A stretch of DNA of 57,257 bases, taken from contig CBDUOS010000002.1 of assembly GCA_965368905.1 (NCBI GenBank), positions 1-57,257 of the forward strand, in the 5' to 3' direction. Source of the stretch: an uncultured Bdellovibrionales bacterium. Its GTDB lineage: Bacteria; Bdellovibrionota; Bdellovibrionia; Bdellovibrionales; JAGQZY01. The stretch's first letter is position 1; every line of letters starts with the position of its first letter. This document shows, piece by piece, positions 29,086 to 55,000 of this stretch. Under the pieces are notes generated by a model. It was not told where the DNA came from. It made no database searches and saw only the letters and a list, made by a program, of their open reading frames with translations. Both the position numbers and the translations under genes were made by a program.

Positions 29086-29104
29086 CCCGGTAAGGATACA
29101 TGAT

Positions 29105-30791: not shown

Positions 30792-30795
30792 TATC

Positions 30796-31907: not shown

Positions 31908-32330
31908 GTGAGTCTTCGTCAAAACTACCGATTTTCAGAAAAAACTAAGTTGGGTGATTCAGTCATTCATGGAAAGGGGCGTTTTGCGACCTTGCCGATA
32001 GAACGCGGTGAAGTCGTAATTGAGGCCGGAGGACGAGTCATAAGCTTGGAAGAGTTTAACAAAACAAAGGAAGATTCAGTCAGTTATCTTCTGATGCCCG
32101 GCGCCAAAGTTTTGGTTACCAAGTGCCAGGAGAGGTTTAATGTATCTTCAGTTAATCACTCTTGTGATCCAAATATGGTTTTTGAGTTTCCATTTTGGAC
32201 TGCAAATAGAAATATTCAACCAGGAGAAGAGTTGACGACTGATTATTCGGAATTGGGCTACGAATCTAGTGACGATCTGCTACCCCAACAGTGTAATTGT
32301 CAGTCAGATCAATGCCGAAAGAAAGTTTGA
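31908..32330 (+). CDS. SET-domain (putative lysine) methyltransferase with post-SET Cys motif
   Basis: GKGRFAT, NHSCDPN, ELTTDYS and C-terminal CNCQSDQC (CxCx4C). The GTG start is uncertain. Confidence 0.75.
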   Translation: MSLRQNYRFSEKTKLGDSVIHGKGRFATLPIERGEVVIEAGGRVISLEEFNKTKEDSVSYLLMPGAKVLVTKCQERFNVSSVNHSCDPNMVFEFPFWTANRNIQPGEELTTDYSELGYESSDDLLPQQCNCQSDQCRKKV

Positions 32331-32338
32331 GGCGTAAA

Positions 32339-33094
32339 ATGGATATCCCAATTCTAGAGAGTGTAGAAGATTTTAAACTTTTGACTGCAAAAGAAAAAAA
32401 AGAGCACTTTGCATTTATCATTAAGAACGTCATCCCAGTAGAAAATTGTAAAGAAATCATTGAAGAAATTTTTAACTGGTCAAGCACAATTCCTCCACAA
32501 AATCCTGAAGAGCCGTATCCCACAGGAGTCTATAATCTTCATTTGCAAGTAAAACACAACGAACCTGCACCCGAGGAGCATATCAATTCTGAGTTGGGGA
32601 CGGATTTTCATGAACGCTATACTGATGTTGATGTCTACAATTATCGAATAGGTTGGATTGAAGATCCTAAATTTGTCAGATCTGCACCAAGGTTCTACGA
32701 CTTCGGAAAGAAAATTCTGAACGACTATCGTTTAATGACTGGGTTTGATTTTCAGCACGGTCCTGGCGGAAACAAGAACTTATACTTTGAATTTGCTCAG
32801 TATCCTTTAGGGAGTGGACATATCGAAAGACACACTCACTTAAGGAATATTGGCAATGGGCAGATGTGGAACTATATGACGTTATTAACACAGGATGGTG
32901 TCGACCACAGTTCGGCGAGTTTAAAGTTTGAATATAACAAAAGAATTTTTGACACACGTGAAGTAATAAATCAAGGGGATGGCATTTTGTTTCGCATGGA
33001 TATTCCCCATTTTGTGGATAGTGTAAGATCAGTCGAACAAAAATCTGTTACGCCAACCTCTGGTCGTTGGACTGTGGGTCTATTTTACTATTAG
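32339..33094 (+). CDS. Cupin/double-stranded beta-helix oxygenase-like protein, family X1 (paralog of 43141-43812)
   Basis: ATG 8 nt after the SET stop, with a GAGG SD. NLYFEFAQYPLGSGHIERHTH, GDGILFRMDIPHFV and C-terminal GRWTVGLFYY. These motifs are shared with the ORF at 43141-43812. Confidence 0.45.
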   Translation: MDIPILESVEDFKLLTAKEKKEHFAFIIKNVIPVENCKEIIEEIFNWSSTIPPQNPEEPYPTGVYNLHLQVKHNEPAPEEHINSELGTDFHERYTDVDVYNYRIGWIEDPKFVRSAPRFYDFGKKILNDYRLMTGFDFQHGPGGNKNLYFEFAQYPLGSGHIERHTHLRNIGNGQMWNYMTLLTQDGVDHSSASLKFEYNKRIFDTREVINQGDGILFRMDIPHFVDSVRSVEQKSVTPTSGRWTVGLFYY

Positions 33095-33965
33095 TTTTTT
33101 TAGTAAGTATGGATAATGCAGTACGGATAAAGCGTGGGTAAACTTTAAAATAACTCCATACAATATTCTCATTTGGGTCAGAAAAAGGGTTGTTAAAAAC
33201 ACCAGTCTTCAGGTTATGAGCATTTGAAGGGTTGGTGTATGTACCAAAGAGATGGTCCCAAAATGCAAAATAGGTTCCAAAATTTGAGTGTTGGAGTTTA
33301 GATTTTGAATGATGGGTGCGGTGATACAGTGGGCTGACTAAGACATACTTACCAAACCAACCATAAGTTGTATTCCAGCGACTGTGTGCGAGACAGCTTA
33401 GGACATCTAAACTGAAAAAGAATATAACAATCATTTCTGGTGGAACTCGAAAAAGAAGGCGAATCGGTATTAAAACCATTATGAAGAGAAATGGGAAACT
33501 GAGGGCGTGAATTCGGATATCACTCAGTGGGTTCAGTGCTGTTGCAGAATGGTGATATTCATGTTGAACCCAAAGTGGCTGTAAATGGCTTAGGCGATGA
33601 TACCAATAAAGCAAAAAGTCATATATTATTAAATAGATCAGTAGTAACAATGCCGACTGACCTTCGAAATACTGATCTAATCGTAGACTCGGTAGGTGTT
33701 GAGAAGAATAAAGAACGCCACCTAACATAACAACATTCCCCAAAAGTTTTCGACCATTGATGAGTTCAATTAGTAGAGTTAAAATGTCATGTTTCAATGA
33801 TACTTTAGACTCTACCATTTGTTCGAAAGGACCAAAAATAATTCGGTCTAACGAAAAGGCCAATAGGTACAAGCAAATATGAAAAAACCCATAGGTGATA
33901 ATAAATTCCCAAATATCAGACAGTGAAAAGTAGTGAAAAATATTTCTAGCAAAGGCTTCAAGCAT
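33048..33965 (-). CDS. Fatty acid hydroxylase / sterol desaturase-family membrane di-iron enzyme
   Basis: His boxes YWYHRLSH, HEYHH, HSRWN, LYHRTHH and the FWDHLFGTY tail. Several TM helices. Confidence 0.75.
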   Translation of the reverse strand: MLEAFARNIFHYFSLSDIWEFIITYGFFHICLYLLAFSLDRIIFGPFEQMVESKVSLKHDILTLLIELINGRKLLGNVVMLGGVLYSSQHLPSLRLDQYFEGQSALLLLIYLIIYDFLLYWYHRLSHLQPLWVQHEYHHSATALNPLSDIRIHALSFPFLFIMVLIPIRLLFRVPPEMIVIFFFSLDVLSCLAHSRWNTTYGWFGKYVLVSPLYHRTHHSKSKLQHSNFGTYFAFWDHLFGTYTNPSNAHNLKTGVFNNPFSDPNENIVWSYFKVYPRFIRTALSILTKKTNSKIDPQSNDQRLA

Positions 33966-33996
33966 AGATAAATTTTTTCATGGAGTTTTAAAAAAC

Positions 33997-35010
33997 TCAA
34001 TGATTCCCTTTTAGCAAAGAGAGAATATATTTTTTTGACTCAGGACTTTTGGCCCTAAACATTACGGAGTCGTAGAAGTAATGCAGAATATTTAGTGAGT
34101 CCATAAACCACCAAAAGAGCAGCCATCCAGCAGGGGCGGCAAACTCCCTGTAATACTTAGGGTCAACAAAACCAAAAGTATCGTTTCTGAGGTTTAGAAA
34201 GCACATAATTCCATACAAACCAACCGCTGCAAAGATAAATAAGCTGGTCAATGAGAAACGGTATATTTCAGATTTAGACTGAGATTTTCCGCTCAATTGT
34301 TTAAAAAATAAAACATACTCTAAGCCATGAAAAGCTGAGATCGCCATGGCCATAATAGGACTAAAAATTCCAATTGGAAAAATTATGAGTCGACTCAAGA
34401 ACAATGTCTCATTTCTCATACTTAGTGACCTTCGAATTGCTTGAAAGACAGAGAATACGCAAAGCAGAAATGCAGGGTAGAGAATAAAATTTTGATAGTT
34501 TTTGTCGACAAAGAAAAAGGCGGCCAGAGCGAAAATGTAAGAAATGGATATGCCTAGAAAGTATTTTTTTGATTCAAACTTTTGGTGGAGTGCACCGCTG
34601 AGCAAAAATATACCATAAGTTTGCATAACTGAGTGGTGTAATCCATAGGCTCGCAAAGCAAAACGTGAAACTTCCCAGGAAATAGATTTTTCAAAGAAGA
34701 AGATATAAATGATACCAGTAGCTAAAAAAGTAACAGGTATTGCGAGTTTAATCTTGAAATTTGTCTGGGCAGCAATGCGGTACCATGTGCGCATTTCTTT
34801 TATGAAAACGAGTCCAAGAAATGTAAATGCAATATGTACTAAATTGAAGAAAGCAATATCGGTGACAATTGACACTTGATCTTTAAATAGTTTTAGATTG
34901 TCGATGAGGCCACCATGAAAAACAGAAAAGCTGAGCAGGTAAAAGAGCAGGAGTGGAATTCCAACACTGTTGTGCAGACTTAAAATGTTAGTATTGTTTA
35001 CTTTCTTCAT
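33997..35010 (-). CDS. Polytopic membrane protein with conserved His motifs, family M (paralog of 44867-45871)
   Basis: About 9 hydrophobic segments. FFNLVH, IKEMRTW, LHHSVMQTYG, IFPIG, ISAFHGLEY and LHYFYDSVMFR are all mirrored in the paralog. Confidence 0.5.
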   Translation of the reverse strand: MKKVNNTNILSLHNSVGIPLLLFYLLSFSVFHGGLIDNLKLFKDQVSIVTDIAFFNLVHIAFTFLGLVFIKEMRTWYRIAAQTNFKIKLAIPVTFLATGIIYIFFFEKSISWEVSRFALRAYGLHHSVMQTYGIFLLSGALHQKFESKKYFLGISISYIFALAAFFFVDKNYQNFILYPAFLLCVFSVFQAIRRSLSMRNETLFLSRLIIFPIGIFSPIMAMAISAFHGLEYVLFFKQLSGKSQSKSEIYRFSLTSLFIFAAVGLYGIMCFLNLRNDTFGFVDPKYYREFAAPAGWLLFWWFMDSLNILHYFYDSVMFRAKSPESKKYILSLLKGNH

Positions 35011-35838
35011 TTAATAATTTTTTAACAAAAAATCTGTTCCTTCTTTGGTATAGTGCCCAGGGCCAAAACTTTTCAATGCGTGTACCACACTTGGCTTACC
35101 CTCAGTGGGACTCATTATATAAGACTTAAGAGAATCTACCAAGTTTACATATTCCATTGGTAAGTCTTCTTTCACAACTACCGCCTGATAGGATTTAAGA
35201 GCTTCATGGGCCATTTCTCGTTTTCGCAAAAGACTTAGCACAATAAATCTCTCAAAATGCCACTTGAGAATTTCTCGACCTAAATCAGGTTTTCTTAAAA
35301 GATAAGAGTCGTAGCTAGAATCTAAGTAACTAAGGGCTTTTTTGTACTGAGATTTGCGTCGAAAAATTTTTGCTAGAGTGATTTGTGGCCAAAAAATGAG
35401 ACTTGGTTTGCTATTGTTGAATTTAATCCGATACTTCTCGAGAATAGACTGCCCCAGCTCAACATTGCTCCAGCGGGGACTATTGGGATTAAGGTAGATT
35501 TTTAACAAACTTAAGATTGTTCTCAAAAAAGGGGTTTGTTTTAAGGGTTTATACAGTTCGTTTCTTTCATAAGACTTTAAAAGGTCTGCTCCGGCTTCAA
35601 AACCTTCTTTTTCAAATTTTACAAGGATGGATTCTAAGTAGAAATCAATTTTCACATCTTGTTCTAAGTTTGTCGCGTCTGTCTGCTCTACGAGTTTGGA
35701 GGCTTCTTCCAATTGCAATGTAAAGCGAAGCCATTTGATCTGGTCACATAAAGGTCGGTCTTTGTGGGTGATGTTGGTTTTACAACCTGCCAAAAATAAG
35801 AAACATAGCAGAAAACTAGTTTTCAACATAACCTTCAT
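35011..35838 (-). CDS. Lipoprotein, helical, unknown function
   Basis: MKVMLKTSFLLCFLFLAGC (lipobox LAGC). The stop abuts the start of the 33997-35010 gene. ATG at 35838 is preferred over TTG at 35865. Confidence 0.55.
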   Translation of the reverse strand: MKVMLKTSFLLCFLFLAGCKTNITHKDRPLCDQIKWLRFTLQLEEASKLVEQTDATNLEQDVKIDFYLESILVKFEKEGFEAGADLLKSYERNELYKPLKQTPFLRTILSLLKIYLNPNSPRWSNVELGQSILEKYRIKFNNSKPSLIFWPQITLAKIFRRKSQYKKALSYLDSSYDSYLLRKPDLGREILKWHFERFIVLSLLRKREMAHEALKSYQAVVVKEDLPMEYVNLVDSLKSYIMSPTEGKPSVVHALKSFGPGHYTKEGTDFLLKNY

Positions 35839-36661
35839 TGTAGCGGGGATTGAAGAAATACACAAAAAGTGCAGGGAGATAGAGTGGCAAAAACTCGTAA
35901 ATACCCATTAGAACAAGGGTTGAGGTTATAAACATCGCCGCAAAGAACCCATAGATTCGTGGTTTTTTGAATACTAGAAAGAGACCTCCAAACATCTCAA
36001 AAAGTAGAACCGAAGCTCCAATAAAAGAACAAAATATCTTAGATTCAGCCACCGTTAATGCAAGCGGATTGTCGGTTAGCAAATACCGATACAAAAAAAT
36101 CTGCTGGATATTAACCTCGGAAGGCCAATCCAAGCCTGCCGAAAGCATCTTTGATAACCCAGCAGATACTAAAGTTACTGGTAGAACCCAAAGGTATGGT
36201 TGGAAGGTTTCATTTCTCTTATTTTGGCCACTGTGCTTTCGTAAAAGGGTAGCCAGCAATGAGGCATGGAAAAATAGAATAAAACTCAAGCCATTGGCGA
36301 ATATATTGTCCGAGAACGACATAAAAAGTTCGTATTGTGAAGACCAGAGCACGAGGATCGCGTACATAATAACATGAGTAAAGATTCTAAATCTTATAAA
36401 GAGAGAAGTGAAGTAGAATAGAAGGAGTACAAAAAACAATATATGGAAATAAACCACATGAAGGTTAGGGATAAAAAACAAATTAAGAAACTTCAAAGAA
36501 GTCGTATTAACTGTTCCGGCGTACGTAGATCTCAGTGTTGAAAAATAAATATAGGGTAGACTTACTAAAGAAAAAAATGAAACAGGAATTGAATAGAATA
36601 GTGGGGCAAGTCTAATGTTGCTAAAATTAAAATATAAAGATTTCATCTTGTTCTCGATCAA
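35816..36661 (-). CDS. Polytopic membrane protein, unknown function (HTTM-like topology suspected)
   Basis: About 8 hydrophobic segments; no motif I can name with confidence. The start is either TTG at 36661 or ATG at 36646, and both overlap the upstream ORF. Confidence 0.45.
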   Translation of the reverse strand: MIENKMKSLYFNFSNIRLAPLFYSIPVSFFSLVSLPYIYFSTLRSTYAGTVNTTSLKFLNLFFIPNLHVVYFHILFFVLLLFYFTSLFIRFRIFTHVIMYAILVLWSSQYELFMSFSDNIFANGLSFILFFHASLLATLLRKHSGQNKRNETFQPYLWVLPVTLVSAGLSKMLSAGLDWPSEVNIQQIFLYRYLLTDNPLALTVAESKIFCSFIGASVLLFEMFGGLFLVFKKPRIYGFFAAMFITSTLVLMGIYEFLPLYLPALFVYFFNPRYNEGYVEN

Positions 36662-37022
36662 CTTGCATACAAAGCTCGTTCTCAGTTTCTAAACAATAGG
36701 TCTTTGTAATGACTACTTTGTAGGGTGATTTATGTTTTTGAAGCTTAGAGAGCAATCTCTCTAACTTTTCTTTTCTTTTACTCGAAGGTTTCTCAAAAAC
36801 GTTATTCAGCTGAAAGGTAAGCTTCCGAAACTCCAGCCAACTTAGTGGAAGTATCTGCCCGTTTTTGTCGTAAATATGAGCTTTAACCACAAAGGTATCG
36901 TTTGGCTCTAGTGTGTATGCGTACATCGGGTAACTCGACCAAGGCCAACTGTGCCAGTGTAATATAGGACTCAATATCTGAATGATAAAAAGAATATAGA
37001 ATATCAGGGTAAATTTCCTCAT
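36627..37022 (-). CDS. Small N-terminally anchored protein, unknown function
   Basis: MRKFTLIFYILFIIQILSPIL anchor followed by a soluble domain (HWHSWPWSSYPMYAY...). ATG at 37022 lies 7 nt after the upstream stop; the track uses TTG at 37046. Confidence 0.45.
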   Translation of the reverse strand: MRKFTLIFYILFIIQILSPILHWHSWPWSSYPMYAYTLEPNDTFVVKAHIYDKNGQILPLSWLEFRKLTFQLNNVFEKPSSKRKEKLERLLSKLQKHKSPYKVVITKTYCLETENELCMQVDREQDEIFIF

Positions 37023-37029
37023 GATCTTT

Positions 37030-37683
37030 CTAAGCCAAGTTGGCAAATGGCCATCCAGTTAAACAATAGCGGCCGTTTGAGGAGTTTTCGTATATGGGAA
37101 TTCTATGAGCTATGCCGCAACGAAATGCAATACCAGTGTTCTTTTGAGGAAAAATATTGAGATCCTTTCCGACGTAACGCAGTGGCTGACCCTGCTTTTC
37201 AAGTATTGAGGCCATGACCTCCCAATTTTTATATTCACTCCCTCGAATTAGTTTTAGAATCGACGGTTTAGAAAGAAATTGAATGGGGCTGGTTTCTTCG
37301 TCACTTAGATACACAACGTAGACCCAGGGTCCGAATGTGTCCTGATTCTCTGTATGGAGATCATATTTTGATCCGTGCGAAAAAAACTTGATCATTGCTT
37401 GAGAAGTTTTAAGAGGTGGGCAAGGAAAAGGTGGTTCGTCATTTTCTTGAAATAAAACATCTAGACGTTTCTTCAACTCATTAAAAATGAGAGGGTGATT
37501 TTTTGCCTGTGCATGGTGTAAATGGTAGTGAAATTTTGAATTAGAGAATATTGGCTGGTCTTGGCTGGATTTTATTGAAGATTGATCAGAGGATTTGAGG
37601 AATTCTTCGAGAACCGTCATTGCTTCTTCTGAAAAAAAGTTTTCATGTCGCCAGACAAGATTATTAGACAGATTTTTCCACAT
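37030..37683 (-). CDS. 2OG-Fe(II)/prolyl-hydroxylase-like oxygenase, family X2 (paralog of 40235-40960)
   Basis: YDLHTE (HxE), FRCGIAHRI (distal His), GRYCLTGWPFA. ATG at 37683 with a GAGGAAAAA SD; it overlaps the radical SAM stop by 20 nt. Confidence 0.5.
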   Translation of the reverse strand: MWKNLSNNLVWRHENFFSEEAMTVLEEFLKSSDQSSIKSSQDQPIFSNSKFHYHLHHAQAKNHPLIFNELKKRLDVLFQENDEPPFPCPPLKTSQAMIKFFSHGSKYDLHTENQDTFGPWVYVVYLSDEETSPIQFLSKPSILKLIRGSEYKNWEVMASILEKQGQPLRYVGKDLNIFPQKNTGIAFRCGIAHRIPIYENSSNGRYCLTGWPFANLA

Positions 37684-39430
37684 TTTTTCCTCGTATACTT
37701 GTGCCTGGACCTCGCAGTGGTGCATGCCCACTTTCAAAAAGAGAAAGATCCCAATTTCTTAAGTCATTCTCTAAAACTGTCAGAAGGTGTTTGTCTTTTG
37801 TCTGGTGCGAAAAAAACGACTTTATCAGCTCCTTTGCCTCGTTTGCAGATTGCAAAATATCGTAAATATCAGAGAACCGCATAGATCCGCTAGCGAACCG
37901 GTAGTAATTGTAGTTGTCGATTTTGGTTTCTGGTTCTGGTTTAAAGTAAAGTTTTACAAATTCGTCAATACGGTGGAGCAATCTAGCAAAAATGGAGTTT
38001 TCGGAAATTTCATCTAAAAAAGATTCAATGAGATCAAGATAAGAACCACCACTTTCTAGATATACTTTTAAAACGTTGGGTAAAATTTTAGCATTGTAAA
38101 ATGTATGATGAAACCACCAAACTCGATACATTTTTCTGAGCTCATTTAAGTCGTAAGAGAAGCACTCGTACACAACTCGATGACGCTGATTCCCGAAACT
38201 GTGACCATCAATCCCTTTATATTGGTTTCGAAAATCAGGAAAAAATATTTCTTTACATAAAATGCCGTTCTTTTTTTTATACTCTGTATCTGCAATTAAG
38301 GTGTTTTCTGAGACTGTCAAAATGTAAGCTCGAGTGAGGTTGATGCCCAAAGAGATATCTCTGCTTAATGAGTTACTCCAGCTCGTACTAGTCTCTCCAG
38401 GAAGCCCAAGAATCATTTCCGAGCAAACATTTAATCCTTGGGTTTGACCAAATCTGAGTAGTTCCACCAATTTTTCAGACTTTATATTTTCTCGAGCCGC
38501 TAGCTTTAATACTTTCTCGGAATGAGTCTGAAAACTGACTTTGAGTTGCCAATTCGTGACATTAAAATTTTTGTTAAATAACTCCAGGATTACAGGTAAG
38601 TACTTAGAGCCATTTTTGGCAAGACCAGAGTAGCTGATGTTCGGATTGGATTGGTATTTGTTTTTTGCGACAATCATTTTTTTAATAGTCTCTAGATCAT
38701 CTCGAAACATCCCAAAATTTGCGTCGAGAATTTCGATTTCTTTAATATTCATCTTAGAAAACAAAAAGTCGATAGTTTTTTCTGTCAATCGCTTTGGGAC
38801 CAGATGGATTCGAGATCGAGATTGACCTCCCCAATCACAAAACGAACAAGAGTATGGGCAGCCGCGATTCGTCTCAAAGCTGGCTTTCAGTTGTGTTTCT
38901 TGTGAAAAAATTTGGTCAAAGCTACCGTCTAAATAGGCATTTGTTTCTATGTTTTCCGGAAGCAGTCTACGCGACCCATCGATTCTTTTTTTTGCGATCT
39001 TTTTCTGCTTGAAATTCTCGATGATATTAACAAAAACATCCTCTCCTGGACCGCAAACAAATGTGTCCACCTGAGGGTAGCGCTCAGAAAAAGAATTGAA
39101 AGTTTTATTCTCTTTGGGAATGTTTGGGCCGCCCCAGATGACCAGACCCTTGGGGTTTATTTTTTTAAAAATCTGGCTGTACTCAGAATTAATTTCCTCG
39201 TTCCACACATAACAGGTGAGGGCTAGAATATCCACATTCTCCAGGCGTGAGATCAGCTCTTCTCGGGTAAGAGCTTTATAGAGTGGAGAAAAGAAGACCA
39301 CTTCATTATCTGTAAAATGTTTTTTGGCATAGGATATGAGAGTGCCTGCAGCATAGGGAAGCCACGTGTCAAAAGCCACGCTTATAGACCCCGTTAAAAC
39401 TCGAATGATTGAACTTTCGGAGGCCGCCAT
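37664..39430 (-). CDS. Class B (B12-binding domain) radical SAM enzyme
   Basis: N-terminal Rossmann-like region (DILALTCYVWN...VIWGGPNIP), then TNRGCPYSCSFCDWG (CxxxCxxC). ATG at 39430 with an AAGGAAA SD is preferred over the track start at 39484. Confidence 0.8.
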   Translation of the reverse strand: MAASESSIIRVLTGSISVAFDTWLPYAAGTLISYAKKHFTDNEVVFFSPLYKALTREELISRLENVDILALTCYVWNEEINSEYSQIFKKINPKGLVIWGGPNIPKENKTFNSFSERYPQVDTFVCGPGEDVFVNIIENFKQKKIAKKRIDGSRRLLPENIETNAYLDGSFDQIFSQETQLKASFETNRGCPYSCSFCDWGGQSRSRIHLVPKRLTEKTIDFLFSKMNIKEIEILDANFGMFRDDLETIKKMIVAKNKYQSNPNISYSGLAKNGSKYLPVILELFNKNFNVTNWQLKVSFQTHSEKVLKLAARENIKSEKLVELLRFGQTQGLNVCSEMILGLPGETSTSWSNSLSRDISLGINLTRAYILTVSENTLIADTEYKKKNGILCKEIFFPDFRNQYKGIDGHSFGNQRHRVVYECFSYDLNELRKMYRVWWFHHTFYNAKILPNVLKVYLESGGSYLDLIESFLDEISENSIFARLLHRIDEFVKLYFKPEPETKIDNYNYYRFASGSMRFSDIYDILQSANEAKELIKSFFSHQTKDKHLLTVLENDLRNWDLSLFESGHAPLRGPGTSIRGKNVEKSV

Positions 39431-39495
39431 AGGGGTTTCCTTTTCGCTACATGAATAATAATATACATGATACTTCATTTGCATAGAGGGGCAAG

Positions 39496-40245
39496 TTGCG
39501 AACTAAAATATACCTACTAATTGTATTCAATCATTTGGTGTTTGTTGCAGCCTTATATTTGTTTCCAATCATTGAAAATCTACCGTGGGTGCTGTTGGGT
39601 TGGATTCTTTTTGGAAAAATCGGTGGAGAGATTGGATTTCATAGATACCTTTGTCACAAAAGCTTCGAAACAGGGATACTTCGTCACCATTTGCTCATGG
39701 TTTTAGGGTGCATGAATTGCTTTGGAAGCCCAATTTCTTGGGCGGCGATTCACAGGTCTCATCACGTGCATTCCGACACTGACCTTGACCCTCATGGTGG
39801 TGCCTTACCCCCATGGAGAGTGTGGTTTACTCTTTGGAAGATACAATCTATCGGACCGAGAGTGGTTCTCAATGAAATGAAAGACCCAAAAATTCGTTGG
39901 TATCACCATAACTATTTCTTTCTTGTTATTGGGTTGTATGGGATCTTTGCTCTATTTTCTCTTCAGTTTGCAGCTTTTTTTGTAAGTGTACCAGCAGTTT
40001 TGACCTTTCACAGTGCTGGACTCGTTAACTTCGTTTGCCACAACTGGGGGTATAGAAACCATCGAACCAAAGACTCAAGTTTTAACAATTTGTTTGTAAA
40101 TGCTTTAACGTTAGGGAGTGGTTTGCACAATAATCATCATAATCGGCCAAACTCACCCTATTGCTCTGAAAACTGGTTTGAGTTTGATTTGCCCGGTTTT
40201 TTGATTAGGACCATTTTTAATAGTAGGAATCGACATGTGGCATGA
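39496..40245 (+). CDS. Membrane acyl-lipid/acyl-CoA desaturase (delta-9-type His boxes)
   Basis: GFHRYLCH, IHRSHHVHSDTDLDPH, GLHNNHH. TTG start with a strong AGAGGGG SD. Confidence 0.8.
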   Translation: MRTKIYLLIVFNHLVFVAALYLFPIIENLPWVLLGWILFGKIGGEIGFHRYLCHKSFETGILRHHLLMVLGCMNCFGSPISWAAIHRSHHVHSDTDLDPHGGALPPWRVWFTLWKIQSIGPRVVLNEMKDPKIRWYHHNYFFLVIGLYGIFALFSLQFAAFFVSVPAVLTFHSAGLVNFVCHNWGYRNHRTKDSSFNNLFVNALTLGSGLHNNHHNRPNSPYCSENWFEFDLPGFLIRTIFNSRNRHVA

Positions 40246-40960
40246 ATTAGTTCCCAATGAAATATGGAGTTATGATAATTATTTGTCTTCGCAAAATTTT
40301 GTGAAGTTGAAGGACTACTTTAATTCGGATCAAAGTTATGAGATGACCCCAGGGGAGTGGATTCGAGATTGTTTTCGAAAATCTAAGGTTAATCCGACTC
40401 TTTATAGTTATAGGGTTCATCCGAGTTCAATCAACCAAGATCGCGCTCTGTTGGATTCTATTTTTGATCCGATTGAATCCCATGTTGGTCAAGACTGTCC
40501 ACGCGAAAACTTGAATCAGTTGCAACTCTTTTTAAAGTCTTTCTCTGGGCAGTCCTTTTATGACCTTCATTGTGAACCACAGTGGCGCTATGGAGAGTAC
40601 GCTTTTTTACTATTTGTCGATGATTGCGAAGAGGGTGGCGAACTGGTGTTTCCAGACCCTGTAGGTTTGGACAATTATTTAAAGGCTAATGAGTCGCAAA
40701 GAAAACACTATTTAGAAAATAAACAAATCTTGGAAAAAGCGGGAGAGTCGGTACGAGTTGTCGGCCCTTGTGAAATTACACCTCAAAGAAACAAAGCCGT
40801 GCTTTTCCGCACGGGATCATCACATTTCGTCCGCCCTCCTAAGGGTAATGATTCGGTCACACGAAGGACTTTAGCGAGTTGGCCATTTGCGACCCAAGAG
40901 CTGGTGGATGACTTAGATATTCACTGTAAAATCAAGCAGCACTTTACCCCAGGGAGTTAG
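40235..40960 (+). CDS. 2OG-Fe(II)/prolyl-hydroxylase-like oxygenase, family X2
   Basis: YDLHCE (HxE), FRTGSSHFV, TRRTLASWPFA. The N-terminal W..DNYLSS...SDQS pattern is shared with 37030-37683. It overlaps the desaturase 3' end by 11 nt. Confidence 0.5.
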   Translation: MWHELVPNEIWSYDNYLSSQNFVKLKDYFNSDQSYEMTPGEWIRDCFRKSKVNPTLYSYRVHPSSINQDRALLDSIFDPIESHVGQDCPRENLNQLQLFLKSFSGQSFYDLHCEPQWRYGEYAFLLFVDDCEEGGELVFPDPVGLDNYLKANESQRKHYLENKQILEKAGESVRVVGPCEITPQRNKAVLFRTGSSHFVRPPKGNDSVTRRTLASWPFATQELVDDLDIHCKIKQHFTPGS

Positions 40961-41841
40961 TGGTGAAAACGAAACATTTACGGAACTTGAACTGGGGTCT
41001 TGAAATAACCGATATTGATTTGTCGACCGCTATGAGTCCTCAAATAGCAGAAATTGGTCAGCTTGCGCTTGAGAACCTGGTTGTAGTTCTTCCAGGTCAG
41101 TCGATAAAGCCACGACAGCAAGTCGATATAGTTTCTGATATTGGAGATGTCGAATTGATGCCCCAATCGATCTGGCACCGTTGCCCTAAAGACTCTGAAG
41201 GGGTGATTCGAGGAGTCCAAAGGGTCACTGGAAAGAAAGACTCCCATGGAAAGCCGATGGGACTGTTTGGGCACGACAAAGATTTGGATTGGCATGCCAA
41301 TAGGGCGAGCGCCTATGAAGATCGCAAAGACCTAGTTTGGCTTTATGGTGTGCATGGTACGAAAGGAAGTAGAACCAGTTGGTTAAATATGGAGCAGGCT
41401 TACGATGACTTGAGTGAGGAGTGGAAGAGAGAGCTTGAAGGGAAAAAAGGTATTTTCGGATACGAGCCAGACCGATATTCAAGTTTTGATGAGTTTACAT
41501 CTCATCGTGGATCGAAAGGAATACCACTAGTATACACTAACCCGATAACACGGAAGCGAGGACTCTACTTTCCTTATTTGCAGTTATTTGGGATCGAAGG
41601 CTTAACAGAGGGTCAATATCTAAACTTTGTCAGTGAACTGAAGAAGAGAGTTCTGAATGAAAAATACATGTACCATCATGACTGGAATGATGGTGATGTG
41701 GTGATTAGTGATCAGTGGTTGACGATTCACAAGAGGCATATGTGCGATATGTCTGAGCGTTTGTTATATCGAATTTCAATGGACTATAAAAAAGTAGTCT
41801 CTAATCAACGTACCTTCTCTTCCACTCATCGACATTCATAG
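40960..41841 (+). CDS. TauD/TfdA-family 2OG-dependent dioxygenase-like protein
   Basis: It aligns to E. coli TauD along its length: GLEITDIDLS.., DWHANRAS vs NWHTDVTF, SRTSWLNMEQAYDDL vs GDTLWTSGIAAYEAL, ISDQWLTIHKR vs IWDNRVTQHYA, RLLYRIS vs RIMHRAT. The GTG start overlaps the upstream stop. Confidence 0.7.
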   Translation: MVKTKHLRNLNWGLEITDIDLSTAMSPQIAEIGQLALENLVVVLPGQSIKPRQQVDIVSDIGDVELMPQSIWHRCPKDSEGVIRGVQRVTGKKDSHGKPMGLFGHDKDLDWHANRASAYEDRKDLVWLYGVHGTKGSRTSWLNMEQAYDDLSEEWKRELEGKKGIFGYEPDRYSSFDEFTSHRGSKGIPLVYTNPITRKRGLYFPYLQLFGIEGLTEGQYLNFVSELKKRVLNEKYMYHHDWNDGDVVISDQWLTIHKRHMCDMSERLLYRISMDYKKVVSNQRTFSSTHRHS

Positions 41842-42445
41842 TAGGTAGAGGCAAGGTAGCCTCTTCTTTCAGTTTTAGTAAAACAACATTCTGCCATGTG
41901 GGTTTTTCATAATTGAGTTCTCCGTTGGGCAATCGACGAACAGTATTGACCATTTGGTCGTGGACTTCCCAATTTTGACCAAATTTTTTAGACAGGCTTT
42001 CCGCCAACTTGTAACAAAAGCTTCTTCGTTTGACATCTTCAAAACTTAAAAAAATAATATCTTTGTTCATGGTTTGCGCAAGCTTTACCTGAACAGGGAG
42101 CATGAGTTGAGAGGCGTAACTGGGCAGTTGGTGACCCTTTAGTGTTTTTTTTCGAAGTTCATCACCATAAAATAATCGGGATAATACTCGTGATACTCCA
42201 GGCGGGTAGGGTTTTTGATGCATCCCACTAAACCCCAAGATTTTATGGTCTTTAGTTATGATGTTGAACATTTCGTAATGATTGAGAGTATAGTCGAGAT
42301 TTTGGTAATTGGAAATTAAACGGTCTTTTGAATATGAATTCTGAATACTGTTTATCAATTCAGAAAACTTTGACAGCCAATCAGAATTATCGGGATCTTT
42401 AAGATCGAATACTTTGAATCCTAAATCGTTGATTCTGCCTCCCAT
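41801..42445 (-). CDS. Hypothetical protein (214 aa; acyltransferase/GNAT-like fold only suspected)
   Basis: The ATG overlaps the upstream ORF by 25 nt. I could not identify a diagnostic motif. Confidence 0.4.
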   Translation of the reverse strand: MGGRINDLGFKVFDLKDPDNSDWLSKFSELINSIQNSYSKDRLISNYQNLDYTLNHYEMFNIITKDHKILGFSGMHQKPYPPGVSRVLSRLFYGDELRKKTLKGHQLPSYASQLMLPVQVKLAQTMNKDIIFLSFEDVKRRSFCYKLAESLSKKFGQNWEVHDQMVNTVRRLPNGELNYEKPTWQNVVLLKLKEEATLPLPTMNVDEWKRRYVD

Positions 42446-43128
42446 ATATGTTTTTTCAAAATCACGTATTTATGAAATTTTTCGTAGCTTCTTTCAATAA
42501 GTTCTTGATGGAATTTTTGATTCACTGATCCAAGAATAAACCCAACGAGTCGAGGTTGGTGAGGTTCTATATTGACTCCATGAGGGACTTGTCCATTGCG
42601 AATCAAGAAAAAATCTGTTTCTTCAGGCAATTGACAATAGTGAAGTTTCTGTTTCGTAGTAATTTTATACTCAGGGTCATAGTCTTTACATACGTAAAGA
42701 GCATCTCTTCGGCCTTGGACTAAAAAGCGGAATCCGATGGGCTCGTTTTCTTCAAGATGTTTTTTTAACTCTGGCAAAATACTCATGTGGAATGGAAAGG
42801 GTTTTTCTATATAATTTTCATCGACATGGGGGAGGATTTCTTCTTGAGCTCTTGCGAGGTGGCAGTAATAGAGATTTTCAAATGGAAGTGAGGTTTCTAT
42901 AGATTTGATAATTTGGGAAAATCGAGAGCGAGCAATATCTGACCACGTACAATCATATGAGCCAATCGGGTGTTCGTAATCCTTTTTTCCTAAAAGAATC
43001 TCTCGGTTCCACCAAATATATCTTTCAGATGTGAGTTGATCAAACTGATTACAGATATCACTCTTGTCGGGTAGAGGAGGGATATCGAGGGGTAAAAAAC
43101 AAATTTCTTTGAACAAGTTTAATTGCAT
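42421..43128 (-). CDS. Cupin-type oxygenase-like protein (HxD...H; Asp/Asn beta-hydroxylase-like)
   Basis: ILPHVDEN (HxD) and NGQVPHGV (distal His), QPRLVGF. Confidence 0.45.
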   Translation of the reverse strand: MQLNLFKEICFLPLDIPPLPDKSDICNQFDQLTSERYIWWNREILLGKKDYEHPIGSYDCTWSDIARSRFSQIIKSIETSLPFENLYYCHLARAQEEILPHVDENYIEKPFPFHMSILPELKKHLEENEPIGFRFLVQGRRDALYVCKDYDPEYKITTKQKLHYCQLPEETDFFLIRNGQVPHGVNIEPHQPRLVGFILGSVNQKFHQELIERSYEKFHKYVILKKHIWEAESTI

Positions 43129-43140
43129 TGCCTCAAGAAC

Positions 43141-43812
43141 CTAATAATAAAAAAATGTGTATATCCAGCGACCAATATGTTTTGGATTGTTTGACTCAAT
43201 CTTTATAACTTCGTGTAGTGTTCTATTATTGAAAAGAATCAGATCTCCTTTTTTGAAAGTGTCTCTTAAATCCAGAGAGTACTCTTGGTCGTAAAAAAGT
43301 ACTCCTCCTTCCTCATAGTCTTCACCTTTGCTGGTTAGTAACCCGAGAAAGTTATATTTGAGTCCAAAATCAGAAATGGATTCATGGGTGTGCTTGTCGA
43401 TGTAGCCTGTACCGACTGGGAAGTGAACAAACTCTAGGTATAAGTTCTTACCCGTCTTATTGCCATGCAACCAATGATCACTCCCAGTCAATTTGTAGAA
43501 GGCCTGTAGTAAAGTAGAGGAAGCAGATTGAATTCCTTTTAAATGGTTTTTGACGAATGGATCATTTAAATCGCCTATTCTAAAATTGTGAGCACGCACT
43601 GGAATTTGATTATTTTTAAAATCAAGGTTTGACCGATGGGCCCTTCCTTCTGAATCCATTGGTAAATGGGCGTTGAGCATTGAGTCCTTAGTTATAGTTT
43701 CTTCAGAAGTAGGCTTTTCAAGGCTTTTCCAGTTATTTAGATCATCAATTATCTGTCCACAACTTGTAGGATCTAAAAAATCTTTAAACAATACAACTGA
43801 TCCGTCGAGCAC
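43141..43812 (-). CDS. Cupin/double-stranded beta-helix oxygenase-like protein, family X1
   Basis: NLYLEFVHFPVGTGYIDKHTH, GDLILFNNRTLHEV, C-terminal GRWIYTFFYY. Paralog of 32339-33094. Confidence 0.45.
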   Translation of the reverse strand: MLDGSVVLFKDFLDPTSCGQIIDDLNNWKSLEKPTSEETITKDSMLNAHLPMDSEGRAHRSNLDFKNNQIPVRAHNFRIGDLNDPFVKNHLKGIQSASSTLLQAFYKLTGSDHWLHGNKTGKNLYLEFVHFPVGTGYIDKHTHESISDFGLKYNFLGLLTSKGEDYEEGGVLFYDQEYSLDLRDTFKKGDLILFNNRTLHEVIKIESNNPKHIGRWIYTFFYY

Positions 43813-43834
43813 TTGTGATCGGTGTTGATCTCCG

Positions 43835-44866
43835 TTGAATTCCTCTAATGAATCAAGTAAAATTAAGTTGTCTATTCATGCCCCCAAGCCGATTGTAGGA
43901 GCTTCTATTATAGTGACGTCAAGTAAAGTAGGCAATGTTAGCCTGATTTTGAAAGAGATAGAAAACCAATTTGGTCGACACGGCCTTGAGCCAATACATG
44001 GTGAGACGAGCAATGCTTTTTTTAAAATGGAGGGTTTTTGCCCGACGGGTAGTATTAAGGTTAAAACAGCCCTTTCGATGATTCAGAAGAAAATGGAACA
44101 AGGAGTGTTGATTCCGTCTAGTATGGTGGTTGATGCTTCGGCGGGAAATTTCGGGGTTGGATTGAGTTGGGTTTGTAATCGCCTCGGCTTCGGGTGCAAC
44201 ATAATATATCCATCAACAGCGTCTGAACTCAAGGCAGGTCTGATTAAAGAAAATTCCGCTGAAATCTCTTACTTCGAACGAAACCCTAAGAAGCAAGAAG
44301 AGTCGTTTGAAGAGGTTCTCAATTATGCAAGCCATCTCCCCGGGGCTGTTCGAGTCGATCAAATGAAAGACCCTGCCAACCCGCTCGCTCACTATAAATG
44401 GACGGGGCCTGAGATCTGGAAAGCATCGTCGGCTGAAGTGACTCATGTTTTTTGTGCCATTGGCACTGGTGGTACAATATCTGGAGTGGGACGTTTTCTT
44501 AAGATGAAAAATCCTGCAGTCCAGATTATTGGTGTCGACGTTGTCGGCAGCATCTACGGCGCGCAGCGAAACGATTGTGATAAAGAGTATGATTCGAAAA
44601 TTCTTTCTCACAAGATTGAAGGTGTCGGTGACGTAGTGGTTTCGAAGGTTTTTGATTCCGAGGTTGTGGACCAAATAGTTGTTACTGAAGACAATGAAGG
44701 CATACATCACTGGGGGGAGCTAAAAAACAAAGGATATGCGGTTGGGATGTCGACAGGACTTGTATACGCCGGTTTTAAAAAATTCGAAAAAGCATATGGT
44801 TTTCGTAAAAATGATTTTCCCGTTTTGTTGAGTGCTGATAGTAGTCGCTTGTATGTCTCTAAATAG
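43835..44866 (+). CDS. PLP-dependent enzyme of the cysteine synthase / CBS (tryptophan synthase beta-like) fold
   Basis: PTGSIKVKTA (PLP lysine context), GNFGVGLS, GTGGTISGVGRFLK. The non-ATG start lies only 22 nt from the divergent gene, so the N-terminus is uncertain. Confidence 0.75.
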   Translation: MNSSNESSKIKLSIHAPKPIVGASIIVTSSKVGNVSLILKEIENQFGRHGLEPIHGETSNAFFKMEGFCPTGSIKVKTALSMIQKKMEQGVLIPSSMVVDASAGNFGVGLSWVCNRLGFGCNIIYPSTASELKAGLIKENSAEISYFERNPKKQEESFEEVLNYASHLPGAVRVDQMKDPANPLAHYKWTGPEIWKASSAEVTHVFCAIGTGGTISGVGRFLKMKNPAVQIIGVDVVGSIYGAQRNDCDKEYDSKILSHKIEGVGDVVVSKVFDSEVVDQIVVTEDNEGIHHWGELKNKGYAVGMSTGLVYAGFKKFEKAYGFRKNDFPVLLSADSSRLYVSK

Positions 44867-45871
44867 ATGAAAGGTTTTTCTTTGAGTAAGAAGTTAGACT
44901 TGAAGCAAGAGTTAACAATTTGGTGTACACCTATTGTTTTCTTTTACTTAGTTCTTCTTTTACTAAACAGATCTGATTTTTTATCCAATGGGCAGTATTG
45001 GTATGACACCTCTCGGTTATTCTCGAGTATTTTATTTTTTAATGCGACTCATGTTGTTTTAGGTTTCTTAGGTCTACTTTTTATTCAGGAAATGAGAGAT
45101 TGGTGGACTGATTTCGAATGGAAAAAAAGCTTCTTTCTTCTCACGGTTCTCCTCCCGGCGATCTATTTAGTTTGGTTGTATACAAACTCTTACAGTGATA
45201 ATTTTTTGTGGAACTTTACAAGAGTCACTCTCATTTTTCTGAGCCTACATCATGCCGCCATGCAAACTTATGGTCTATTGGTTGTTGGAAAAAGTAAAAA
45301 AGAGAAAAGGATTTTGCGTCACTTGTTTCTGTTCCTGGTTGTGCTCTTTGGTGCTTCTAGGTATGCGAGGCTGGTCCCAAGTATTTCCCTTTTTTGGGTG
45401 GACTGGACAACATTCTTTGCTTCCTCTTTAACAATGTTATTGATTTATCGAGTCTGTTGGCACAGGAAAAGCGATCGAATATTCCTAATAAGAATTGTAC
45501 TCTTTCCTTTGGGGCAGATTTTTTCAGTTGCAGCCATTGGCATCTCTGCAATACATGGAGTTGAGTACCTGGTTTTGCTAAAACGACAGTTCGGTAACAC
45601 TAGAAGTAAAAGTGTTGTTCTTGGTTTAAACGGAAAAAGCTTTTCATATTTTTCAATTTTCCTAATGTATCTCGGCTTAGCCCTGGTTAATGAGAGATCC
45701 GGGCTGTTTTCAGTCAGAAATATGGATCGTTTTGAAGAGATTGGAGCCTTGTTAATGACCTCCTGGATCGTAATGGACCTGGTGTCGCTTCCGCACTATT
45801 TTTTAGATGGAGTGATGTATCGCTTCTCAAATAAGAACAGCCGATCCAAGATATTACCGCTGCTTCGTTGA
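44867..45871 (+). CDS. Polytopic membrane protein with conserved His motifs, family M
   Basis: FFNATH, IQEMRDW, LHHAAMQTYG, LFPLG, ISAIHGVEY, PHYFLDGVMYR. It starts immediately after the PLP enzyme's stop. Confidence 0.5.
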   Translation: MKGFSLSKKLDLKQELTIWCTPIVFFYLVLLLLNRSDFLSNGQYWYDTSRLFSSILFFNATHVVLGFLGLLFIQEMRDWWTDFEWKKSFFLLTVLLPAIYLVWLYTNSYSDNFLWNFTRVTLIFLSLHHAAMQTYGLLVVGKSKKEKRILRHLFLFLVVLFGASRYARLVPSISLFWVDWTTFFASSLTMLLIYRVCWHRKSDRIFLIRIVLFPLGQIFSVAAIGISAIHGVEYLVLLKRQFGNTRSKSVVLGLNGKSFSYFSIFLMYLGLALVNERSGLFSVRNMDRFEEIGALLMTSWIVMDLVSLPHYFLDGVMYRFSNKNSRSKILPLLR

Positions 45872-47197
45872 CGGCTCTCGGGCTATCCGAAAGCCCACAG
45901 ATTGTGATCGATATTCTTCTTCACCATAAAGTTTGTAAGACGACCGAGATCTTCTTTCGCAGTATAAGAAGCCGCCTCCCCTCCATATTTTTAGATTTTT
46001 CTTCTTTTCTTTTGACTGAGTGTATGAAGTGTCAATCCATTCCCAGACGTTGCCGTGCATATCATGTAGGCCCCAAGGGTTAGGCTTTTTCGTAGCAACT
46101 GGATGAGGCTGCTTGTTGCTGTTTAAGAAATGCCAGGAATAGGGATCTATTTGTTTTGGGTCGTTGCCAAAAGAGTAAAGCGACTTTGTTCCTGCTCTTG
46201 CTGCATACTCCCACTCATCGTCCTTCGGCAGACGGTAGTGCCAGCCCTTATTGGCAGATAGTCTATTTAGCTTTTCAAGAAATAAAGTGACCTCATGAAA
46301 AGAGACCTGTTCTACTGGGAGTTTGGGGCAAATCATATGTTGATTTACAGTCATGTGACTCTTGGGGCAATACTTGGGTAAATTAAAATAGGATGGATTG
46401 TATCCGACCAGATTGAACCAATCGAGTTGTGTGATTTCAGTCGCGGATAAGTCAAAACTATTCTGTATTGTAACCTTTTTCTGGTCCTCATCATGATCTC
46501 GGGAAGGTTCAGTTGCTGGAGTTCCTTTTATATAGGAGCCTTTTTCTATCTTGAGAAAGTGAATTTTAGGAAGCTGAGGAGCCAATTGTTTTAAAAATAT
46601 GGAAAAGAAGTGGGAGTTGCTATTAATTTGAAACTGATCATTTGGTGATTGTTCCTCTAAAAGGTCTGAAACAAACTTGGAGATATCACCATTAAATTCT
46701 GCTACAAGGGAGCTAAAATTTAGTGTCTGACTTTCATTAAACCTCGATATTTTTGTATTAATATTTCGTAAGTAGGCAAAAGTGATATCTGATGGTTTAA
46801 AATAGGAGGCAAGTTCATTGAGTTTTCTTATTTTCGATTTATTTTCAAAGACTTGATCATTGAAGTCTTCAGAATTTGTTCCTTGTCGCATTCCAGGTCT
46901 GAGATCTCTTTTTTGCCTTTTAGGATCCTCTCCATAGCGATCATGATTTGCAATGAGAAGGCTGTAGGTTATAATTTGTTTTAACTCGTCTTCAGGGCAG
47001 TCATAACTATGTTCTCCATATTGTATAGTCCAATGACCTGTGCTTTTCTTATGTACATTAATATCGGTAAGACTTAAGTATTCGTAATACCAGATTGAAA
47101 AAACAAAACCTAATAGAACGACAAAAGAAGCTGGGAAAACATAGCGCATCGGGGCTCTAAAGCTGGGCTCCACGTACCAGAAAATTGTTTTTCCCAA
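45854..47197 (-). CDS. Membrane-anchored protein with C-terminal FGE-sulfatase (SUMF1/EgtB/PvdO-type) domain
   Basis: N-terminal TM helix, an approximately 200-aa unknown region, then RLPKDDEWEYAARAG, NPWGLHDMHGNVWEW, WRGGGF, VGFRIARE. The start is either TTG at 47197 or ATG at 47149. Confidence 0.8.
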   Translation of the reverse strand: MGKTIFWYVEPSFRAPMRYVFPASFVVLLGFVFSIWYYEYLSLTDINVHKKSTGHWTIQYGEHSYDCPEDELKQIITYSLLIANHDRYGEDPKRQKRDLRPGMRQGTNSEDFNDQVFENKSKIRKLNELASYFKPSDITFAYLRNINTKISRFNESQTLNFSSLVAEFNGDISKFVSDLLEEQSPNDQFQINSNSHFFSIFLKQLAPQLPKIHFLKIEKGSYIKGTPATEPSRDHDEDQKKVTIQNSFDLSATEITQLDWFNLVGYNPSYFNLPKYCPKSHMTVNQHMICPKLPVEQVSFHEVTLFLEKLNRLSANKGWHYRLPKDDEWEYAARAGTKSLYSFGNDPKQIDPYSWHFLNSNKQPHPVATKKPNPWGLHDMHGNVWEWIDTSYTQSKEKKKNLKIWRGGGFLYCERRSRSSYKLYGEEEYRSQSVGFRIAREPSTKQR

Positions 47198-48239: not shown

Positions 48240-48269
48240 AGCCTAGGTTGGCCTCTTAAAGTTTATTTT

Positions 48270-54899: not shown

Positions 54900-55000
54900 A
54901 AAAGCGGCCGAGCGACCCGTAGCACATAGGATACCTGCTACCGTTGCTTCCTTCCGGACCTGGCGGGTTTCACAAGACCGCTATTGTACGGGACTCGACC
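54900..55000 (-). ncRNA. ffs: Signal recognition particle RNA (small, 4.5S-type)
   Basis: The minus strand reads ...CCCGCCAGGTCCGGAAGGAAGCAACGG..., the conserved helix-8 GGAA tetraloop region. The 5' GGTCGAG-T-CCCGTA pairs with the 3' TACGGG-TCG-CTCGGCC, followed by a T5 run. The position upstream of dnaX is classic. The ends are approximate (+/- 5 nt). Confidence 0.8.

Follow-up and report, generated by a model that had tools for sequence, protein, structure and literature searches.

A 57,257-nucleotide stretch of DNA from an uncultured Bdellovibrionales bacterium (contig CBDUOS010000002.1 of assembly GCA_965368905.1; hereafter the window) carries, between positions 32,339 and 45,871, three gene families that each occur in two copies and are named X1, X2 and M here. 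The copies are true, ancient paralog pairs. Taking the evidence together, we regard it as fairly probable that they belong to a lineage-restricted, oxygenase-rich cluster in which X1 and X2 are divergent pairs of 2-oxoglutarate (2OG)-type proteins and M is an orphan family, and that the pairs arose by old single-gene duplications followed by subfunctionalisation. The block would form part of a cluster of approximately 16 genes packed with O2-dependent iron enzymes. What is new here is the placement of X1 and X2 as putative deeply divergent subfamilies, the conserved HxH variant of X1, the unassigned M family, and the cluster itself, which was unannotated wherever we looked.

The three paralogous gene pairs

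All six open reading frames (ORFs) were present at the following coordinates and strands:

32339-33094 (+): X1a, a putative protein of the PHD/P4H-like 2OG-oxygenase fold with an HxH...H...R site (GHIERHTH); member of the X1a clade
43141-43812 (-): X1b, paralog of X1a, with HxH (H141/H143), a distal H200 and R215; member of the X1b clade
37030-37683 (-): X2a, a putative divergent 2OG-Fe(II) oxygenase with HxE...H...R, translationally linked to a B12-binding radical SAM gene
40235-40960 (+): X2b, paralog of X2a, with H112-x-E114, H197, R210 and a C-terminal extension; between a desaturase gene and a TauD gene
33997-35010 (-): Ma, an orphan polytopic membrane protein with approximately 8-10 helices
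44867-45871 (+): Mb, a divergent paralog of Ma that starts at the base after the stop codon of a PALP-family gene

BLASTP aligned the X1 pair at 30% identity over 226 amino acids (E = 9e-31), the X2 pair at 30% over 223 amino acids (E = 2e-23) and the M pair at 27% over 349 aligned columns, its full length (E = 2e-36). The Smith-Waterman local scores of all three pairs lay 34-43 standard deviations above those of 300 composition-preserving shuffles, and the similarity is therefore not compositional, that of the hydrophobic M pair included. The three pairs proposed in the earlier note are thus real, and the refuting outcome that it named, shared motifs due to composition, can be set aside. The motifs quoted there also held in larger alignments: HTH, GD.ILF....H.V and GRW....FYY show no or almost no variation among 18 members of the X1 family, and YDLH.E, FR.G..H and R....WPFA are kept in 8 members of X2.

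When the 25 ORFs in the interval 29.7-50.6 kb were compared all-versus-all by BLASTP, only the X1, X2 and M pairs were returned, and hidden Markov models (HMMs) of the three families matched exactly two ORFs each across the whole window. Each pair is split between different operons on opposite strands, as had been noted before. At the DNA level only 21-34 nucleotides of similarity are left between copies, at motif-coding spots. Short inverted matches of 79-81% identity lie on the HH..MQTYG motif of Ma/Mb (34607-34640 / 45246-45279) and on the WPFA motif of X2a/X2b (37043-37063 / 40870-40890); these are residual codon-level conservation and not mobile repeats.

Proposed fold and metal sites of X1 and X2

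The three families had been described as unassigned. That description still applies to M, for which no relatives were detected outside the cluster, but no longer to X1 and X2, for which the 2OG-Fe(II) oxygenase superfamily is the probable place. From profile comparisons, both are putative, soluble and very divergent PHD/P4H-like members, that is, new deep subfamilies of a known superfamily. The sole Pfam family matched by X1 and X2 was PF13640 (2OG-FeII_Oxy_3), to which the PHD2/EGLN1 and P4H-type prolyl hydroxylases belong. It was matched at E <= 0.01 by 11 of the 18 X1-family members, with no other plausible Pfam model, and by five of eight X2-family members (best E = 4.5e-6). Within the window, X1b (E = 9.5e-5, 23.7 bits) and X2b (E = 2.6e-5, 25.5 bits) scored below the cut-off of 27, and X1a gave no match to this model.

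An exhaustive search with a profile of the X1 pair recovered 16 proteins at E <= 1e-30, the X1 family proper, and a tail of 180 proteins at E <= 1e-3 that matched the C-terminal catalytic half. A word-indexed homology search with X1b alone returned only the window's own proteins, and a scan of JGI metagenomes with an X1 pattern found no relatives. PDB sequence searches with single proteins and profiles gave nothing significant for X1 and no match for X2, and neither family had a match in NCBIfam. The low-confidence AlphaFold2 model of X1b had 202 Foldseek matches in the PDB at E <= 1e-3, and the best 50 of these 202 were all 2OG oxygenases, most of them PHD2-type, headed by PHD2/EGLN1 prolyl hydroxylases (E = 3e-6, TM approximately 0.5) and then OkaE and WelO5. 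Sequence identity of X1b to the matched structures was 9-16%, and we treat these matches as consistent support, not as proof. The public gene call for X1b (P0001, 179 amino acids) starts at an internal ATG and is truncated at the N-terminus; the family alignment contains a conserved N-terminal region that requires the 223-amino-acid form starting from the GTG at 43812.

Some of these results count against the placement. No Pfam match of the X1 and X2 proteins of the window reaches the gathering score, the X1b model was built from a two-sequence alignment and has a pLDDT of 53 and a pTM of 0.56, and the fold assignment of X1 draws on the consistency of weak signals with no single strong match among them.

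The predicted active sites bear on the same question. In the eight X2 sequences, H112, E114, H197 and R210 are invariant, which corresponds to the HxD/E...H triad plus an arginine; X2 would therefore keep the canonical 2-His-1-carboxylate site, with the Arg apparently placed to bind the C5 carboxylate of 2OG. X1 departs from this pattern. Its 18 sequences share (X1b numbering) H141, H143, G189-D190, H200, V202, G214-R215-W216 and Y223, so that HxH...H is invariant where the 2-His-1-carboxylate pattern calls for HxD/E...H, and the position two residues upstream of the first His is occupied by E, D, G, A or S. When 186 retrieved sequences were aligned to the X1 HMM with hmmalign, H141, H200 and R215 were near-universal. 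The column of H143 contained H in 134 sequences, D in 43 and E in 3, and H143 therefore occupies the carboxylate position of HxD/E. The column of R215, which lies in GRW and is invariant within the X1 family, contained R in 163 sequences and K in 7. A conserved three-histidine HxH...H metal site in X1 is supported by this alignment, in line with the earlier suggestion of a three-His or otherwise non-canonical site, and R215 would be placed as the binder of the 2OG C5 carboxylate, a role assigned from its position only.

Comparison of the two families with each other points in the same direction. With deeper profiles, hhalign aligned X1 and X2 over 181 columns (E = 2.9e-4, probability 40%), pairing HxH with HxE (H143 with E114) and matching the distal His and the Arg of one family to those of the other. 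Two-sequence profiles gave a negative result, and a remote relationship between X1 and X2 is suggestive at this depth.

The likeness to PHD2 and P4H-type enzymes thus lies in three residues that have the order and spacing seen in 2OG oxygenases (a first His, a distal His carried by a GD...HxV strand, and an Arg after it), and for X2 also in the HxE of the 2-His-1-carboxylate site. The differences are the His in place of the Asp/Glu ligand in X1, an insertion of approximately 85 residues between HxE and the distal His in X2, sub-threshold scores, and no evidence for a protein substrate. X1 shares HxH plus a distal His with three-His enzymes and HxH variants such as the cysteine dioxygenase-type cupins and, within JmjC proteins, JMJD8 (PMC2938197). 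Unlike small cupins and JmjC proteins, however, it appears related by sequence and predicted fold to the P4H/PHD type, and it keeps the putative 2OG-binding Arg.

HxD is the norm in 2OG oxygenases, whereas HxH is the cupin condition and a rare substitution, as in JMJD8 (PMC2938197). Furthermore, an engineered prolyl 4-hydroxylase with three histidines, D414H, had no detectable activity (PMC2767507), and by analogy X1 may not be a conventional 2OG hydroxylase, which is a further point against the placement above. The invariance of HxH in the X1 family would fit a protein that does not depend on 2OG, such as a dioxygenase of the cupin type, a protein that binds some other metal (Ni, Zn, Mn), or one that binds without catalysing a reaction. 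We consider this somewhat unlikely: HxH and HxD members keep the Arg at the 2OG position and the GD...HxV strand with equal strictness, and the fold matches are PHD2-type enzymes, not small cupins.

As a tentative extension of the 2OG-oxygenase placement, X1 could represent a natural, widespread HxH clade of PHD/P4H-fold enzymes that keeps the 2OG-binding Arg, either with a new mode of 2OG coordination or with a different oxidative chemistry, and that works with M proteins as new membrane (metallo)enzymes on an undescribed membrane lipid or metabolite of Bdellovibrionota. An active X1 would add a natural three-histidine enzyme to the prolyl-hydroxylase branch of the 2OG oxygenases, and would bear on how strict the 2-His-1-carboxylate rule is, given the inactive engineered Asp-to-His variant. 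A distant HxH clade of X1-like proteins (approximately 217-234 amino acids) is common in marine metagenomes (contigs L005-L007, P0172); its member P0172 adjoins a NeuB-like gene in L005, a context unrelated to the cluster described here.

The surrounding cluster, the M family and the probable substrate

Apart from the six paralogs, the genes of the window in this region include the following:

30796-31197 (-): small conserved protein, at the left edge
31294-31839 (-): short SDR, at the left edge
31908-32330 (+): SET-domain protein (Pfam E = 4e-13), ending 9 nucleotides before X1a
33048-33965 (-): membrane di-iron fatty-acid-hydroxylase family protein (FAH), weakly OlsE-like (PF04116, E = 1.5e-26); partner of Ma and X1a
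35011-35865 (-): putative lipoprotein, no Pfam match; same operon as Ma
35816-36661 (-): polytopic membrane protein, no Pfam or NCBIfam match; same operon as Ma
36627-37046 (-): small membrane protein, no Pfam match; same operon as Ma
37664-39484 (-): B12-binding radical SAM protein of the KedN5-like C-methyltransferase family; upstream partner of X2a
39496-40245 (+): short membrane protein of the fatty-acid desaturase family (PF00487); upstream partner of X2b
40960-41841 (+): TauD/TfdA-family 2OG oxygenase (PF02668, E = 4.5e-29); downstream of X2b
41801-43128 (-): two conserved unassigned genes (41801 and 42421); downstream of X1b
43835-44866 (+): PALP-fold pyridoxal phosphate (PLP) enzyme, cysteine synthase/CBS/SbnA-like (PF00291, E = 8.7e-49); divergent pair with X1b
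45854-47197 (-): FGE-sulfatase-domain protein (FGE) with an N-terminal membrane segment; in the X1b-PALP-Mb-FGE block
49142-49921 (-): Asp/Arg-hydroxylase-like (AspH-like) cupin (PF05118, E = 5e-6); conserved cluster member

Gene overlaps and abutments point to the following operons:

31908-33094 (+): SET, X1a
39484-33048 (-): B12 radical SAM, X2a, the three membrane/lipoprotein genes, Ma, FAH
39496-41841 (+): desaturase, X2b, TauD
43812-41801 (-): X1b, 42421, 41801
43835-45871 (+): PALP, Mb
49921-45854 (-): AspH-like, two unassigned genes, FGE-domain protein

Promoter and terminator scans gave nothing above shuffled expectation.

Related loci were compared as the contexts of X1-family representatives with 10-kb flanks. 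Only Bdellovibrio-like bacteria and unclassified metagenome contigs turned up as relatives of the cluster; L002 and L003 are metagenome-assembled genomes (MAGs) of uncultured Pseudobdellovibrionaceae (Bdellovibrionota). Four of the loci are these:

L016/L017 (JGI, 54-kb contig): compact cluster with two X1, two X2 and one M
L012/L013 (Logan, 40-kb contig): M, FAH, X1a-type, PALP, X1b-type, X2a-type, AspH, TauD and radical SAM genes
L003/L010 (MAG GCA_964409815): a single M, X1 twice in tandem, one X2b-type gene, and another X2 truncated where the contig ends
L014 (GCA_964588335, 398-kb contig): closest relative, with flanking genes 50-80% identical to those of the window

X1, X2 and M therefore occur together in other genomes, the co-occurrence that the earlier note had named as a check on its proposal, and with their neighbours they form a conserved, lineage-restricted cluster of approximately 16 genes. 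Its compact form in L016/L017 contains M, FAH, an X1a-type gene, a small gene like 30796, PALP, an X1b-type gene, a membrane gene like 35816, the B12 radical SAM gene, X2b-type and X2a-type genes, the desaturase, AspH-like, TauD, 41801, 42421 and SDR. The M-FAH-X1a adjacency recurs in L012 and L016, and the divergent PALP/X1b pair in L009, L011, L012/L013 and L016. SET and X1a are adjacent in L004 and L014 but not in the compact L016 cluster, and both SET and FGE lie outside the core shared with L016. The L014 locus is collinear with the window for an ABC transporter, SET-X1a, X2a-radical SAM, desaturase-X2b-TauD, 41801-42421 and 47157-48270, whereas the DUF1513/30796 pair, the FAH-Ma-35011-35816-36627 block and the X1b-PALP-Mb-FGE block are absent from it.

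Several of the individual genes are shared at the level of orthologs. Those of the B12 radical SAM gene are 41-56% identical in L012, L014 and L016, the AspH-like cupin is 55-56% identical to its orthologs in L012 and L016, and homologs of the three-gene group at 35011-37046 occur in L003, L012 and L016. In NCBIfam, FAH matched the OlsE model at E = 3e-15 with 56 bits against a cut-off of 475, the desaturase matched the DesA family at E = 1.7e-22, below cut-off, and the 41801 product had no match. The 42421-43128 product (235 amino acids) has an invariant PHVDENY (HxD)...PHGV...R pattern and may be a further double-stranded beta-helix (DSBH) oxygenase, judged from this pattern; it had no PDB or Pfam relation and no NCBIfam match. 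Its family is present in L003, L014, L016 and L018, and the gene lies immediately downstream of X1b in the window; in L003 and L018 it precedes an X1 gene.

The M proteins, approximately 335 residues long with at least eight hydrophobic segments, remain an orphan family in these comparisons, with no relatives detected outside the cluster. Pfam, NCBIfam and PDB searches, the last with single sequences and profiles, gave no match. A Ma/Mb profile run against a word-indexed set of 5.8 billion proteins returned only the window's own proteins, a scan of JGI metagenomes with M patterns found no relatives, and no internal repeat was found. An AlphaFold2 model of Ma, built from two aligned sequences, was too poor to use (pLDDT 39.5). 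Orthologs of Ma occur in L003 (40% identity), L012 (35%) and L016 (33%). Ma-type proteins are 33-46% identical among themselves, as against 24-27% between Mb and every Ma-type protein. No ortholog of Mb was found outside the window, and no second M copy in the comparator loci L003, L012, L014 and L016. A 369-amino-acid gene downstream of PALP in L009 was considered as an ortholog of Mb and rejected, its product being a secreted soluble protein.

Five M members share invariant H59, E72, H125-H126, Q130, H228-G-x-E231, D304, H310, D314 and several Arg, and from this pattern of polar residues we infer that M may hold a membrane-embedded metal or catalytic site. M resembles the membrane di-iron histidine-motif enzymes (fatty-acid hydroxylases and desaturases) in being polytopic with several invariant His and acidic residues, but it lacks their HxxxH/HxxHH motifs, and hhalign found no profile relationship of M to the FA_hydroxylase and FA_desaturase families of the cluster itself (probabilities of 0.3% and 1.7%). 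As a conserved His-rich membrane family, M gains from the cluster a context in which it can be tested.

The company of the six paralogs suggests a substrate. Because FAH, a DesA-like desaturase, four further membrane proteins, a cupin of the AspH/LpxO family, an SDR and PLP enzymes surround them, their most likely role would be to modify, step by step and with O2, a molecule associated with the membrane and probably lipidic. Successive oxidative tailoring could comprise hydroxylation, desaturation, C-methylation and amino or thiol group chemistry, with X1a and X1b, and likewise X2a and X2b, acting at different steps or positions. The families of OlsE (FA_hydroxylase) and OlsC/LpxO (Asp/Arg-hydroxylase) have one member each in the cluster, alongside the desaturase, and by analogy this suggests oxidative modification of a membrane lipid. 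In contrast to the ornithine-lipid pathway, however, the OlsE-type match is far below cut-off and there are no acyltransferases of the OlsB, OlsA or OlsF type; X1, X2 and M have no counterpart in the ornithine-lipid or lipid A pathways.

The cluster encodes up to seven candidate iron enzymes of the DSBH or cupin type, together with two di-iron enzymes of the membrane, two PLP enzymes and one or two of the radical SAM kind. Its product is probably an undescribed molecule of predatory or epibiotic Bdellovibrio-like bacteria, a group about whose envelope chemistry little has been learned. Two considerations temper the assignment to lipids. No substrate, product, precursor, acyltransferase or carrier gene was identified, so that lipid tailoring is a conjecture, and a peptide would be just as fitting a substrate for the SET, AspH-like, FGE-like and PHD-like proteins.

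Modification of a peptide or protein, in the manner of ribosomally synthesized and post-translationally modified peptides (RiPPs) or as a post-translational modification, would make X1 and X2 residue hydroxylases that act with the SET methyltransferase, the AspH-like and FGE-like proteins and the radical SAM methylase. Structurally, X1b finds its top matches among protein prolyl hydroxylases; the SET, Asp_Arg_Hydrox and FGE-sulfatase domains have peptide-modifying relatives; the B12 radical SAM protein weakly matches RiPP C-methyltransferases; and the small conserved protein at 30796-31197 accompanies PALP and X1 in all loci. We take a peptide substrate seriously but regard it as rather unlikely. 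We identified neither a short ORF resembling a precursor nor a leader peptidase nor a RiPP recognition element, the core includes two lipid-type di-iron enzymes of the membrane and four more membrane proteins, and two of the three domains with peptide-modifying relatives, SET and FGE, lie outside the core shared with L016.

Age and mode of the duplications

The distribution of copies among genomes suggests that each pair goes back to an old single-gene duplication that would predate the split of the sampled lineages. In a bootstrapped neighbour-joining tree, the X1b clade (96% bootstrap) comprised X1b of the window, P0008, P0015, P0017 and P0018, and the X1a clade (76%) comprised X1a of the window, P0004 (L014), P0005 (L004), P0006 (L002) and L012a. 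The window, the L012 contig and MAG GCA_964388755 each have one member in either clade, and L016 has one gene that best matches X1a and one in the X1b clade. Likewise, the X2 genes of the window, L014 and L016 fall into two orthogroups, X2a and X2b, with orthologs of X2a in L014 (53% identity), L016 (37%) and L012, and of X2b in L014 (66-67%), L016 (38%) and L003 (40%); across the X2 identity matrix, orthologs are 28-66% and paralogs 21-26% identical. These separate groups across genomes bear out the idea that the duplication was ancient.

Each copy has also kept partners of its own: X1b with PALP, X1a with FAH and M or with SET, X2a with the B12 radical SAM gene and X2b with the desaturase. 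Because each copy is kept beside a different partner enzyme, we infer that the copies became subfunctionalised, with SET, FAH and M beside X1a, the PLP beta-synthase beside X1b, the B12 radical SAM methylase beside X2a, and the desaturase and TauD beside X2b. This would agree with the earlier idea that the copies serve two steps or two substrates, and duplication plus subfunctionalisation of tailoring oxygenases is a common pattern in biosynthetic clusters.

The evidence is less kind to the proposal that one X1-X2-M module was duplicated as a whole. Paralogs are adjacent in other genomes (an X1-X1 tandem in L003, X2b beside X2a in L016), which points to tandem single-gene duplications. The phyletic patterns of the families differ: X1 and X2 are doubled in L016 and L003, single M genes are found in L003, L012 and L016, and the L014 locus contains X1a, X2a and X2b with neither X1b nor M. 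Gene order in the window is not parallel, running X1a, FAH, Ma, three genes, X2a on one side and X2b, TauD, two genes, X1b, PALP, Mb on the other; the genes in between show no relationship from one copy to the other, and the block has no further duplicated gene. Taken with the X1 clades, the X2 and M identities and the copy-specific partners, this favours old, separate, local duplications of single genes, followed by subfunctionalisation and rearrangement. The near-mirror layout of the window would then reflect the presence or absence of the FAH-Ma-... and X1b-PALP-Mb-FGE blocks relative to the closer relative L014.

A single duplication of an X1-X2-M block, for example one inverted around the divergent point at 39.49 kb and later obscured by rearrangement and by gene gain and loss, would suit both the similar divergence of the three pairs (27-30% identity, which fits a single event without being specific to it) and the mirror-like strands X1a(+) Ma(-) X2a(-) | X2b(+) X1b(-) Mb(+), one X1/M swap from a perfect inverted copy, but is very improbable in view of the unduplicated neighbours, the unrelated partner genes, the related clusters with two X1, two X2 and one M, the content of L014 and the adjacent paralogs in L003 and L016.

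The scenario of separate duplications has its own weak points: support for the X1a clade is moderate (76%), the trees are neighbour-joining trees, five independent multi-gene loci were compared, and orthologs of Mb or a second M could lie beyond the 10-kb flanks or elsewhere in those genomes.

Some further observations concern these loci. In L003, the X1b-type copy at 9433-10242 matches in two frames (9502-10032 and 10106-10231), owing either to a frameshift that made it a pseudogene or to a fault in the assembly. The blocks that are extra in the window relative to L014 span 29712-31197, 33048-37046 and 43141-47197, and were either inserted here or deleted in L014. An FG-GAP/ASPIC-UnbV protein and an NQR2/RnfD-like membrane protein lie at the edge of the cluster in L012 (13007-15545) and L016 (1594-4216); no counterparts were present in the compared 29-50 kb of the window. 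The FGE-domain gene overlaps the end of Mb by 18 nucleotides on the opposite strand, and its product has weak best matches to PvdO, GldK and EgtB, all far below cut-off. The 287-amino-acid protein encoded at 48270-49133 (-), with a 53% identical ortholog in L014 and no Pfam or NCBIfam match, carries an SFSKSFG...R.GW stretch that we take to resemble the PLP-lysine motif of class I/II aminotransferases.

A tRNA gene (21684-21756, +) and a bacterial small signal recognition particle RNA gene (54903-55000, -) flank the region; with dnaX, recR and nadA lying downstream, these genes mark the setting as ordinary chromosome. A 128-amino-acid protein without a family match (29105-29491, -) adjoins a radical SAM gene (28129-29187) and is 87% identical to its ortholog in L014, compared with 54-81% for its neighbours.

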